From Pseudobdellovibrionaceae bacterium (GTDB lineage Bacteria > Bdellovibrionota > Bdellovibrionia > Bdellovibrionales > Bdellovibrionaceae), in contig JBGGMM010000004.1 of NCBI GenBank assembly GCA_041288045.1, forward strand, positions 1-45,995: 45,995 nucleotides of DNA, read 5' to 3'. Both the position numbers and the translations under genes were made by a program. Within the stretch, counting starts at the first letter, position 1. Every line of letters starts with the position of its first letter. The notes under the pieces are model-generated. The model was not told the origin of the DNA. It made no database searches and worked only from the letters and a program-made list of their open reading frames with translations. This document shows, piece by piece, positions 16,140-29,600 of the stretch.

Positions 16140-16168
16140 AATCATGGGCTCTCAAGAAGGAATGTCAA
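16140..16168 (-). promoter_or_regulatory. Candidate heat-shock (sigma32) or sigma70 promoter of clpB
   Basis: TTGACA-ttccttcttgagag-CCCATGAT upstream of clpB. Confidence 0.4.
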
Positions 16169-16440
16169 TGTCCACGCCGAACGTCAAAGGACCTGTCCAA
16201 AAGTTGCACAGGCGCACACCCAAAAGATTGAGCACCAGCATTCGTTTTGATAGCGTCAATCCCACTGATTACTTGAAATATGATTTTCGTTTCGCCTGCG
16301 AGGACTGCAGTCACTTTAATTCGGAAGGCGGAAACTGCACCCTTGGTTACAACTCTGCTTGGCACCGACGAGAATTTCAAAAGAAATCCTATGAGCTGAG
16401 CGGCAAAATGGCGCTCTGTCGATTTTTAGAAATTGATTGA
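16162..16440 (+). CDS. Small Cys-rich hypothetical protein (CEDCSHF...C...C), possibly metal-binding
   Basis: 3' part of ORF 15943..16440; ATG at 16162 or 16168 after GAAGGA; divergent from clpB. Confidence 0.65.
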   Translation: MSMSTPNVKGPVQKLHRRTPKRLSTSIRFDSVNPTDYLKYDFRFACEDCSHFNSEGGNCTLGYNSAWHRREFQKKSYELSGKMALCRFLEID

Positions 16441-16448
16441 GCAACAAT

Positions 16449-16675
16449 TTGCACTCTAACTAGCGTACACCTATAGGTTGACGATAGATAACACCACCCC
16501 TCAAATGGCCTGTCCAAAAAAACTTGCCAGACGGCCCGGATGGCTGTCTGGGAGCCTTCGCATGGATGGATGCAGTTGCGTTTATCCTCGGCACCGCTGT
16601 GCTTGAGACTCCCCATCCATGATGTTGACCGTCGGTACACCATACCAAGGGTCAACATCATGGATGAGAGCTCCC
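16449..16675 (+). repeat. Dispersed structured element, copy 1 (promoter/palindrome + 85-nt core + 17-bp inverted repeat)
   Basis: Core 16525-16609 matches 29410-29494 at 76/85 nt; the upstream GCACTCT...CCTATA...GACGATA block is also shared. Confidence 0.85.
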
Positions 16676-16934
16676 GAAACTTACGTCTTCGACTGAACGT
16701 AAAGACAAAAGAAAAAATTTTATTCCGCGAGACTTTGACATTCTTTTTGTGACTTTTCGACTGCTCGACTTGCCTCGATGTCGGTCTATTGACTCAAGAG
16801 AAGGCAAAAAATTCCTTCATTTTCTCGCGTTTGGTCTGGGAAAATTCTGTTTTTCCGTCTGAAAGTCTTGGTTTTCTGGATCTGCCCTTGGTCCAATTTG
16901 CATCTAGAAACTCCATTTCAGGACTCATGTCCTG

Positions 16935-17023: not shown

Positions 17024-17268
17024 ACAAGGTTGAAGGATCAACCGGAGAGTCTGAAGGTCACACTCTCCAATTACTCAGAAAGGAGGCTTTCAAGGATGAA
17101 CTAAATATTGCAAATATTTAAGGCCAAGTATCTTGAGTCAAAAGGCCATGACTCACATTAAGTGCGAAAGCACTAGGCTCGGAAGCCGCTCACGAAGAGA
17201 ACGAAACACGGAGGGATTGAAATGAAAAACAAAATTAAAGATTAAATTTTTTAACGGAGGATAGAACA
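17024..17268 (+). promoter_or_regulatory. Structured flagellin 5' leader with GGA-loop hairpins (candidate CsrA sites)
   Basis: Hairpins GGTTGA-AGGA-TCAACC, TTCA-AGGA-TGAA, GGCT-CGGA-AGCC and four further stems. Confidence 0.65.
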
Positions 17269-27199: not shown

Positions 27200-28840
27200 A
27201 TGCACGTGGCTGGAGTCAAAAAAACCATGAAACAACTGGGTTGGATCCTAATGGCCTTCCACCTTTTGGCTTTTACTTCGCCTCAGCGAGATGACCTGAT
27301 TGAAATTAAAGGTTTTCTAAACGGCCGGAGTGAGGGCTCTTTCACAGCCCAGAATCAAAATCGGCTCTATGTCCTAAAATCTGGAACTCGTGCCGTCGTC
27401 CGCGAAGTGAAACATTTTAATTCTGGAAATTACGGACTTTGCCTCAGCTTGCTCAATGCCACGGATATTCCTTCAAACTCTGATTGCGTCTGGGCGTACT
27501 TTGACGTGAAAAATCCCGCACTGAATTTATATTCAGTGTCTGGCAATCCATCCGTCCGAAAGCAAACGATTGAAACTTGGGCCAAAGATGGGAAAACAGT
27601 GCGCTTAAAGAAAGCAACCACTCCGTCCCAAGGCCAAGCGGCGCAGACCACGAGACAGACGACTGCCGTGGTTGAAAATAAAAATCCTTCCCGAACAGAC
27701 TCAAAAGCAGTTGCTCAATCCGTCGTGCAGGGCATTCATCAAACCAACAAATCCGTCAGCACAGCAATGGGAGCATCTCATTCGGAAGTCTGCATGGACT
27801 GCTCGAAGCCATCACTGGTCTCTTATGAAACGGCCTGCAAAAATGATCCAAAACAAAATTATTTAGAAAACACTCTCTCTGGAATCCTGAACCAATCGTC
27901 GGATTCCGCATTTTACCAATCTCCACAGAAAGAAGTGATTCGAACGGCCTGCATTCAAAGAAATATGCAGACTTTTGTTTCAAGCCGCGAATTTTATCGA
28001 ACCTGCTCACCTCAGCAGCTTTCAGGTGGGACAAAAGCCGCGAAGGCCTGCCTCAGCGAAAACTATGTCAATATCACTTCGAAAGCTTTCAATTTGGCTG
28101 CTGATTGCCTTGGTGATTATGTGGCAGGTAGCGAATCTGGCAAGGGCCAAGCCGCTCTGAGTATTTTTTCTTTTATGGCCCAAGAATCTGGAATGCATGT
28201 GAACGCCAGAAGCTCGACAGGCGCTGGCGGTCCAGGGCAAATGACTGGCGGAGCAATCAATGCCGTCAATCAGGACATGCGAAACATCAAACGACATTTG
28301 GAAAACTCCAAAAATCCAAACTGCTCACAAACTCTTGCTCGTGCTTTGAAAAATCCATTGAGCACTCGCGGAGCTTCTTGTGATCGGATCCGTCTCGATG
28401 ATGGCAATCCAATGAAGAGCATGGCCTACGCTTTCGCCTACCAGGCCATCAATCGCCGCGTCCTTGATAACGTGGTTTTTGACGAAGCTCTGTTTGGTAA
28501 AGTGATCTCTGATGAGTTGCCAAAAACGCAAAAGGACCGATTGATGATGGAGCTTTCTGCTTGGTCTCACAACACAGGGCCCGCCGGAATGACTGGCACT
28601 CGCTCACGTCCAGGCCCGCTGATTGCGCAATTGAGATCCTACGCTTCTCGCCGGGCCCAGCTGAAAACAAAATCTGACGTGGATCAATTTATGACCGGAT
28701 TGAAAGATTACATGCGAAGATACGCTCATCCCGCGAACAGTTCAGCGTCAAGAGTCAGAGAAACTTCAAATTACTATGAGAATATTCAGAAAAAGATGAA
28801 AATGATCACACAGGAGGCTCAATCATGTCTCGCCAATTAA
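27200..28840 (+). CDS. Secreted Cys-rich lytic transglycosylase (SLT/lysozyme-like)
   Basis: QESG...NARSSTGAGGPGQMT (motifs I/II, catalytic Glu) and SHNTGP (motif III-like). Confidence 0.75.
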   Translation: MHVAGVKKTMKQLGWILMAFHLLAFTSPQRDDLIEIKGFLNGRSEGSFTAQNQNRLYVLKSGTRAVVREVKHFNSGNYGLCLSLLNATDIPSNSDCVWAYFDVKNPALNLYSVSGNPSVRKQTIETWAKDGKTVRLKKATTPSQGQAAQTTRQTTAVVENKNPSRTDSKAVAQSVVQGIHQTNKSVSTAMGASHSEVCMDCSKPSLVSYETACKNDPKQNYLENTLSGILNQSSDSAFYQSPQKEVIRTACIQRNMQTFVSSREFYRTCSPQQLSGGTKAAKACLSENYVNITSKAFNLAADCLGDYVAGSESGKGQAALSIFSFMAQESGMHVNARSSTGAGGPGQMTGGAINAVNQDMRNIKRHLENSKNPNCSQTLARALKNPLSTRGASCDRIRLDDGNPMKSMAYAFAYQAINRRVLDNVVFDEALFGKVISDELPKTQKDRLMMELSAWSHNTGPAGMTGTRSRPGPLIAQLRSYASRRAQLKTKSDVDQFMTGLKDYMRRYAHPANSSASRVRETSNYYENIQKKMKMITQEAQSCLAN

Positions 28841-29286
28841 TCCGGCTCCTGATAGCCCTCACAATCATCAGCCTCAATGCTGCAACTTCAGCTTTCGCTC
28901 AGTCCAATGATTTGAATTGGTCGGATGTCTCCCGAGAAATCGAAGTCACTTTAAAGGATTTGAAAAATCCAGCTCTGACGACCAAAGTGAGATTGCTGCG
29001 AATTCAATCCCAAAAAGAAGCTTCAGGGGCCCTGTTTCAAGAACTCTTAATAACAAAAAAATATGAAAGTCCCGGCGAGGAAGCACAATTCGCAAACGCC
29101 TACCAAAACATTGCGGCTCTGACGACTCTTTCCAAAATCCAATTAGGCAAAGACGGCAAAGCCACAGCCAACAGCTGCGCCGGCGTCCGCTCAATGTTAA
29201 CAGCCTCGCAACAAACCGCAAATGACGAACAGACAGTAGAGATTGAGAAAGACTTCAACGAAGTCTGGGCCTTGATCTGCCAATAA
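28825..29286 (+). CDS. Secreted helical hypothetical protein overlapping the transglycosylase stop
   Basis: AGGAGG RBS, signal peptide ending AFA, two Cys. Confidence 0.75.
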   Translation: MSRQLIRLLIALTIISLNAATSAFAQSNDLNWSDVSREIEVTLKDLKNPALTTKVRLLRIQSQKEASGALFQELLITKKYESPGEEAQFANAYQNIAALTTLSKIQLGKDGKATANSCAGVRSMLTASQQTANDEQTVEIEKDFNEVWALICQ

Positions 29287-29308: not shown

Positions 29309-29540
29309 CTGCACTCTGATTATCGTCTGCCTATAATCAGACGATAATCTGTGGACAGACTCGCATTATAAACCAAACCAAAAACCTCAACCCAGCTGTC
29401 CTAATTTACTGCCAGACGGCCCGGATGGCCGTCTGGGAGCCTTCGCACGGACGGACACACTCGCGTTTACCCTCAGCACCGCTGTGCTTGAGACCCTCCA
29501 AGGCCTCACCCCTTCGGGGCTCGCCTGCGGCGAGTTTCCA
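29309..29540 (+). repeat. Dispersed structured element, copy 2
   Basis: 12-bp perfect inverted repeat around TATAAT, 85-nt core shared with 16525-16609, terminal GC-rich hairpins. Confidence 0.85.
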
Positions 29541-29600
29541 GAAAAACCAAATGATTAGGAAGGGAAAATACTGTTCGTAGGATTTGTTGGCGGGCGGAAA

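Follow-up and report, generated by a model that had tools for sequence, protein, structure and literature searches.

A 51-copy modular intergenic repeat with a predicted CsrA-type hairpin in a Pseudobdellovibrionaceae genome

The window, by which we mean the whole 45,995-nt stretch of DNA analysed, carries two copies of a non-coding element, and both are deletion derivatives of a modular, hairpin-rich intergenic repeat present in 51 copies in the source genome (G000; 2.89 Mb, 83% complete). We judge it somewhat probable that the element is a non-autonomous mobile intergenic repeat, with an AYGGAY hairpin that is predicted to be bound by CsrA in transcripts running on from neighbouring genes. 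The copy number, the module order A-B-C-D-E-G-F, deletion between short direct repeats, the empty orthologous sites and the enrichment between convergent genes are established, as are the patchy distribution in divergent doublets, a near-invariant CAnGGAnGG stretch with a covarying outer pair, and the presence of csrA.

Two window copies and their parent element

The 85-nt cores of the two copies lie at 16525-16609 and 29410-29494 and differ by 9/85 substitutions, 8 of them transitions, as the sequence-only reading had reported. The features of the copies and the adjacent ORF are as follows:

16168-16440, + strand: conserved 90-aa ORF with no Pfam match; copy 1 begins 9 nt past its stop, on the same strand
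16450-16487, no strand assigned: copy 1 module A, a degenerate 50-nt palindrome truncated on the right, which is the claimed promoter
16527-16551, + strand: copy 1 module B, a 10-bp hairpin with pentaloop CGGAT (family loops ACGAY/AGGAH) and a stem that covaries family-wide
16558-16570, + strand: copy 1 module C, a TC(N)C-AYGGAY-GGA bulged mini-hairpin, predicted CsrA/Rsm-type site
16587-16607, + strand: copy 1 module D, a hairpin with a CGCT loop, the outer stem of which is not kept family-wide
16614-16666, no strand assigned: copy 1 module E, a long invertible hairpin
16667-16703, + strand: degenerate remnant of copy 1 module G, the point of element truncation
29309-29358, no strand assigned: copy 2 module A palindrome, beginning about 22 nt past the stop of the ORF at 28825-29286
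29412-29492, + strand: copy 2 core B-C-D, with the AYGGAY hairpin at 29443-29455
29494-29500, + strand: copy 2 CCCTCCA junction, where modules E-G were deleted between two such 7-mers of the master element
29502-29545, - strand: copy 2 module F, two short hairpins (minus-strand loops GAA and GCA) and half of a closing stem

Both hexamer pairs that had been read as promoters are present (TTGCAC-N17-TATAGG at 16449-16477 and CTGCAC-N17-TATAAT at 29309-29337), each with its -10 box central in a palindrome, and so is the 17-bp inverted repeat described in copy 1 (16614-16666). Copy 1 was spanned with 0 differences by the independent contig set X1, which is possibly the source sample itself. Compared with shuffled sequence, folding gave z = -5.4 for the copy 1 region and z = -2.3 for the copy 2 region. 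A flagellin gene lies ~570 nt downstream of copy 1; copy 2 is located between convergent genes, one of which encodes a 4Fe-4S (nuoI-like) protein and has its stop codon 55 nt from module F. The ORF at 16168-16440 is cysteine-rich, has counterparts of 72-79% identity in 5/5 congeners, and sits between clpB and flagellin.

What had been described as a two-copy element proved to be a large family: in profile searches, the C-D core was found at 51 loci of the 2.9-Mb genome, and 101 clusters of family modules totalled ~15 kb, or 0.63% of the genome. These clusters are assembled from ten modules (X, Z, Y, A, B, CD, E, G, F and I). Module A stood upstream at 21 of the 51 core loci, and B was found at 34, E at 24, G at 21 and F at 20. 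The identity between the two window cores (88%) was close to the family mean (87% pairwise among 28 cores), indicating no special closeness. A six-way alignment of the window copies with four longer copies gave one master element of ~410 nt, comprising A, an A-rich spacer, B, C, D, E, G and F. Since this alignment shows nested deletions of the one master, the different hairpin modules that had been noted after the two cores, while they do differ, are products of deletion: E-G has dropped out of copy 2 between two CCCTCCA repeats, and copy 1 ends within a decayed G. The proposed pairing of GCTCCC or GTTTCC back to GGGAGC in the core did not hold up across the family; the sequences are present in the window, but GGGAGC reads GGAAGC in 11/28 cores, and GCTCCC is absent after E in the four other aligned copies.

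Insertion sites and distribution

The element is likely mobile, non-autonomous DNA, and the earlier suggestion of a non-autonomous REP/REPIN-like repeat was largely right in this respect, failing on the REP tag and on linkage to a RAYT gene. Both window sites were empty in the 5/5 congeners examined, and the gap before the flagellin gene, 829 nt here, measured 474-680 nt in the four measurable congeners. According to crude ORF calls made for this analysis, convergent gaps accounted for 24 of the 46 core loci with both neighbours called, against 105/758 in the background (p 9e-10), and divergent gaps were depleted (3/46 against 238/758). No target duplication was detectable at 48 loci with roughly defined ends, where the longest shared flank word was 5.1 nt compared to 5.4 nt for mismatched pairs; the combination of short terminal inverted repeats and target duplication that marks a MITE was not observed. 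Three contig sets contained neither an excision joint nor an empty allele, which speaks against ongoing movement; the two joints seen there between the window copies most likely derive from other repeat copies.

Beyond the source genome the distribution is patchy. BLAST detected parts of the element in 3/40 relatives, and a covariance model of the core (R1) gave matches in 27/150 genomes of the family, corresponding to 10/41 genera counting the source genome, with 10-58 core matches per genome in the 11 genomes examined closely. Among 245 listed matches there were 44 close core pairs (<500 nt), of which 42 were divergent; such doublets are rare in the source genome itself (contigs C187, C104 and C144). 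Stem sequences and flanking modules are lineage-specific across genomes. Several cores occupy similar coordinates in G097 and G133, with orthology sequence-checked for L266/L274 only, and these shared positions imply that movement may be slow. An exact core pattern, which is too strict a probe given the much wider reach of the covariance model, matched 35 loci in 185,579 species genomes, all in one assembly and kept out of the other counts, and 7 loci in metagenomes, of which one is real (L197) and six look like chance.

Given the lack of target duplication and the Y1 genes that abut the core in two genomes, we infer that the repeat may move in trans as folded single-stranded DNA acted on by an HUH/Y1 enzyme, a route to which we give slightly less than an even chance. 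On our preferred reading of the family as a whole, the repeat would insert just past stop codons and would gain and shed hairpin modules.

A conserved AYGGAY hairpin

Module B is a covarying stem, with changes on both sides at 9/10 pairs among the 69 model matches. In the 65 full-length matches, 621 of 649 stem B cells were Watson-Crick, 7 were G-U and 6 were A-C, with no excess of G-U. Being almost purely Watson-Crick, with G-U about as frequent as A-C, stem B is therefore uninformative on strand, and the two stem changes in the window that keep G-U pairing, from which the + strand had been deduced, are unrepresentative of the family. Modules A and E favour the opposite strand, their + strand A-C versus G-T counts being 37 versus 20 (A) and 41 versus 21 (E) in copies that are not independent. 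In the D hairpin, 65% of cells were paired (two genomes). An enclosing AGC/GCT stem was not supported and showed no partner specificity (33/65). The B loops are most commonly ACGAY (45/69), without GGA.

The most conserved stretch of the core is CAnGGAnGG, of which positions 3 and 7 alone vary across the 69 model matches. It is enclosed by a bulged 3-bp stem, the outer pair of which is UA in 50 copies, GC in 7, AU in 6 and unpaired in 1, and ranks 7th by mutual information in the alignment; the GC and AU variants are mostly in one genus and may represent two events. In PMC4894983, the high-affinity CsrA/RsmE site is named as the CANGGANG hexaloop, and the free positions of CAnGGAnGG are exactly those of the site given there. 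By covariation, AYGGAY forms the terminal loop of a hairpin whose closing stem is conserved. Thermodynamic support for this stem was weak, with a mean closing-pair probability of 0.03, and values >0.3 in 3/57 cores, upon partition-function folding of the naked RNA.

The same loop is found on the opposite strand in modules X and G and in the first hairpin of F, and the G stem contains a G-U pair; modules C and G are complementary and therefore could mask each other. Overall, AYGGAY motifs of the source genome occur on both strands (49 sense, 39 antisense). The family makes up 0.63% of the genome but contributes 76/174 of its CAYGGAYG hairpins, and control motifs with changed letters were not enriched, except for complementary and CG variants contained in the elements. 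A reading of the second hairpin of module F as a UNCG loop was set aside, as the register does not fit the stem; the first hairpin may still be read in this way.

The source genome encodes csrA, next to an ORF read as fliW-like, and the conserved AYGGAY hairpin is predicted to bind CsrA. In PMC13443453, the CsrA of B. bacteriovorus is described as repressing a flagellin reporter and is implicated in predation. The flagellin leader in the window contains its own hairpin, TC-AnGGAn-GA at 17078-17100, which is kept in 6/6 genomes of the genus with the loop positions free and is likely a native CsrA site.

These observations also bear on the fairly unlikely alternative that the element functions only as DNA, as a REP/REPIN/PATE-like repeat in which a single-strand DNA nuclease recognises the hairpins and CAYGGAYG, and their resemblance to CsrA sites is a coincidence. 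The nearly complete Watson-Crick pairing of stem B (621/649 cells) and the failure of naked-RNA folding to expose GGA would both be in line with this view, as would the presence of module E in both orientations (16 versus 5), the inverted doublets and the absence of target duplication. Stable DNA triloops resemble the minus-strand loops of the second hairpin of F (GCA 13, AAA 9, GAA 4, GTA 1 and ACA 1), which also argues for a DNA role. Incidental likeness would not readily explain the exact match between the free positions of the motif and those of the CANGGANG site, nor the bulged, covarying mini-stem that encloses the motif in a format shared with the flagellin leader of the host. In addition, the 5' GT[AG]G/CGTC foot, the tag of REP-type repeats, was found in only 1/69 cores (module B only).

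We retain the reading of a mobile repeat with a CsrA-type hairpin. Copies would be transcribed passively in the 3' ends of neighbouring genes and not from a promoter of their own. Transcribed copies may then offer CsrA sites, and binding would turn them into either a scattered sink of low affinity or a tag on mRNA 3' ends. Of the earlier idea of an RNA element, the part that survives is this CsrA-type AYGGAY hairpin, which had gone unnoticed; the part that fails is the promoter.

The proposed promoter and an independent sRNA

We consider it very unlikely that the copies form a family of independently transcribed, operator-controlled sRNAs with a promoter in palindrome A, for which a CsrB/RsmZ-like sponge would be the natural function. 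Copy 2 does carry a perfect TATAAT, the polarity of the core is fixed and its structure covaries, and, by eye, the AT-rich spacers of divergent doublets in other genomes could hold promoters. Nevertheless, the module A counts and a promoter scan do not support the self-transcribed sRNA that had been proposed from the sequence. Module A is a 50-nt palindrome in which TGCAC at the foot of the left arm pairs with GTGCA of the right arm in intact copies, and the claimed -35 element (TTGCAC) is this foot. The loops vary (CCATAA, CTATAG, CTATAA, TTATAG and others), and TAxxxT was counted by eye at the -10 position in only 3/29 module A copies. Moreover, 30/51 cores lack module A, which precedes only the remaining 21 and, in other genomes, does not belong to the family. 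No -35/-10 pair of a sigma-70 promoter in the palindrome was conserved across copies, a consensus promoter scan detected none at either claimed site, and a terminator scan detected none on the + strand after either window copy. The sites are also lineage-specific insertions.

In PMC4894983 and PMC4333381, CsrB/RsmY/RsmZ RNAs share with the repeat the CANGGANG hexaloop and a pentaloop of the CAGGA(U/A/C)G type. Unlike these RNAs, the repeat is scattered over dozens of loci, carries only one or two GGA sites on each strand, and has no conserved promoter, terminator or locus. No CsrB-type RNA was found described for Bdellovibrio-like predators in the literature searched.

Candidate partner genes

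The source genome contains two multi-copy IS200-like Y1 families, one RAYT-like gene and a multi-copy DUF222-like/HNH family. The Y1 families (C242:9893-10423 and at least 13 further loci; C100:166-792 and ~11 others) are divergent and fall below NCBIfam cut-offs. Y1 family 1 is present in 26/41 genomes of the order, with up to 49 matches, and its upstream region is conserved. A search for a flanking RAYT/IS200-type transposase, as had been recommended, gave a mixed outcome, with Y1 adjacency in the source genome and in G072, and neither modules at RAYT loci nor Y1 adjacency in 11 other genomes. In the source genome, 6/9 Y1 family-1 loci with a visible upstream region abut a repeat module divergently. 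Three of these six loci share a loop insertion, which suggests that Y1 family 1 and the abutting repeat multiplied as one unit. In G072, a core lies within 700 nt of 8/12 Y1 matches.

A different gene neighbours the core in four related genomes of another genus, where an HNH gene lies <700 nt from a core at 4/10, 5/12, 5/13 and 6/9 loci, or 20/44 core loci in all, with none beside Y1; the rough expectation of 0.1-0.2 per genome assumes 1500 gaps, and the four genomes share loci and are not independent. Conversely, a core accompanies 19/45 of the HNH genes in these genomes, leaving more than half without one. Across 13 genomes, cores lie beside Y1 (HUH) genes in 2, beside HNH genes in 4 and beside neither in 7. 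In six further genomes, all fragmented assemblies, cores were within 700 nt of 0/60 Y1 loci and on 0/67 HNH-bearing contigs, and the 35 loci with the exact core pattern have no Y1 or HNH gene within 1.5 kb.

Two candidate partners found no general support. Y1 family 1 is unsupported as a universal partner: G001 has 49 Y1 matches and no core, other genomes lack adjacency, and no core was found beside sampled Y1 orthologues in G001, G002, G006 and G007. Nor was a fixed boundary of the core found. The RAYT-like gene has a 27-bp repeat of its own, and none of 20 RAYT-like loci showed a module of the B-CD-E type. That gene (C213:12977-13717) is single, lies among flagellin genes, has orthologues in 7/7 congeners and is bracketed by the 27-bp inverted repeat, which has ~50 matches genome-wide, mostly as inverted pairs. 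Together the gene and its repeat look like a RAYT/REPIN system separate from the core repeat. Three doublets of the source genome lie within this 27-bp repeat.

With partners that differ by lineage and many genomes that show none, the core appears to travel with a variety of mobile genes without being the fixed end of any. We consider it highly improbable that nuclease cassettes (DUF222-like plus HNH, or Y1) have the core as their end structure or RNA partner, with free copies as non-autonomous derivatives comparable to the PATEs and omega-RNAs of IS200/IS605. That view could draw on the HNH and Y1 adjacencies given above and on a core-HNH-core cassette in G133, missing from G097, with a degenerate ~18-nt direct repeat; it is opposed by the change of partners between lineages and their absence in 7/13 genomes, by the HNH genes without a core in four genomes of one genus with common loci, by the variable orientation of the core relative to the gene, and by an orthologous HNH gene that has a core behind it in G097 and none in G133 or G127.

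That cassette (L273, G133:C1:615600-617282; related loci L287 and L290) is 1.7 kb long and sits just past a stop codon; G097 has no insert at this site, and G127 has another one there that also bears HNH. In G147 (L263, L264 and L261), HNH genes and cores are flanked by long tracts of simple 4-8-nt tandem repeats, reminiscent of the short repeats that have been reported upstream of TwoAYGGAY. The DUF222-like/HNH genes of the source genome (C65:1-1000, C151, C144, C133, C53, C83, C105 and C222:37573) have arrays of 2-3 module-Y hairpins upstream, and this hairpin also occurs inside the coding linker of some of them.

Module E of copy 1 is a collapsed pair of inverted repeats of the kind that bracket a 95-aa DUF222-like ORF at C68 in the source genome. 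The E arms bracket this ORF in the source genome (C68:25267-25682, L056) and in G002. The ~95-aa ORF resembles the N-terminal part of DUF222-like HNH proteins and is found in 42/384 genomes of the order, mostly in single copy. At its loci (L231-L260), 17/30 are bracketed by a lineage-specific inverted repeat, a count made without a shuffled control; in most cases the right arm overlaps the final codons. Among the genomes of the genus, only the three with the ORF (G000, G002 and G004) contain module E repeats, and the other five do not.

Likeness to known repeats

Comparison with Rfam bore out the earlier failure to assign a known family: no family exceeded its cut-off for the window, the copy-1 region or eight other loci, with five tRNAs elsewhere in the window as the only hits. 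The closest likeness in behaviour is to TwoAYGGAY (Rfam RF01731; PMC2864571), which a preprint describes as multi-copy, arranged in divergent doublets (68%), near REP arrays and with proposed Csr/Rsm binding (10.64898/2026.09.22.753630); CsrA binding is likewise proposed in PMC4333381. The same preprint presents the multiplication route and the CsrA binding of such repeats as an open question. As in TwoAYGGAY, the repeat described here is intergenic, varies widely in copy number between genomes, spreads in a mobile-like manner, forms divergent doublets (42/44 close pairs here versus 68% there) and has AYGGAY loops with proposed Csr/Rsm binding and lineage-specific extra hairpins. The architectures differ, as the core here has one AYGGAY hexaloop and one A[CG]GAH pentaloop and TwoAYGGAY has two AYGGAY hairpins on a basal stem. 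At ≥43 bits, RF01731 matched 0/5 genomes, with no match in G000, G006, G072 or G133 and one below the cut-off in G018. The main text of the preprint makes no mention of Bdellovibrio, HNH or RAYT (10.64898/2026.09.22.753630).

The likeness to REP/REPIN/BIME-RAYT systems (PMC3116915 and PMC6006769) extends to extragenic palindromes in high copy, inverted doublets, module mosaics, the lack of target duplication and genomic Y1-family genes. The unit here is longer, at 85-400 nt, the Y1 genes that abut the core are multi-copy and IS200-like, and the single-copy RAYT-like gene on C213 is flanked by a different repeat. With PATEs and IS200/IS605 elements the family shares transposase-free palindromic repeats, repeat-mediated internal deletions and a piling up of mobile elements (PMC3119063); unlike in PATEs, the core appears to be no constant end of Y1 genes, the palindromes lying beside Y1 in the source genome (6/9) and in G072 (8/12) and not in 11 other genomes. 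The repeat works like TwoAYGGAY-type repeats and REPINs and is formally a member of neither. We found no description of it for Bdellovibrio in the open-access literature.

Implications

The family represents a second, Rfam-invisible lineage of the TwoAYGGAY type of repeat, with candidate partner genes alongside. A more complete picture, which we regard as unlikely, is a selfish repeat that also serves as a scattered sink for CsrA (holding 44% of the CAYGGAYG hairpins) and hitchhikes on IS200-like Y1 and DUF222-HNH genes, one of its modules having arisen by collapse of the two end repeats of a small DUF222-like gene. If this were true, it would describe a REPIN/RAYT-like architecture with a non-HUH partner, would tie the spread of AYGGAY repeats to named enzymes, and would link repeat load to the control of flagellin and predation. 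If the copies do not titrate CsrA, the element would be an unusually elaborate REP-like repeat, mainly of concern to mobile-element specialists. If they do, a selfish element would tune the motility of a bacterial predator.
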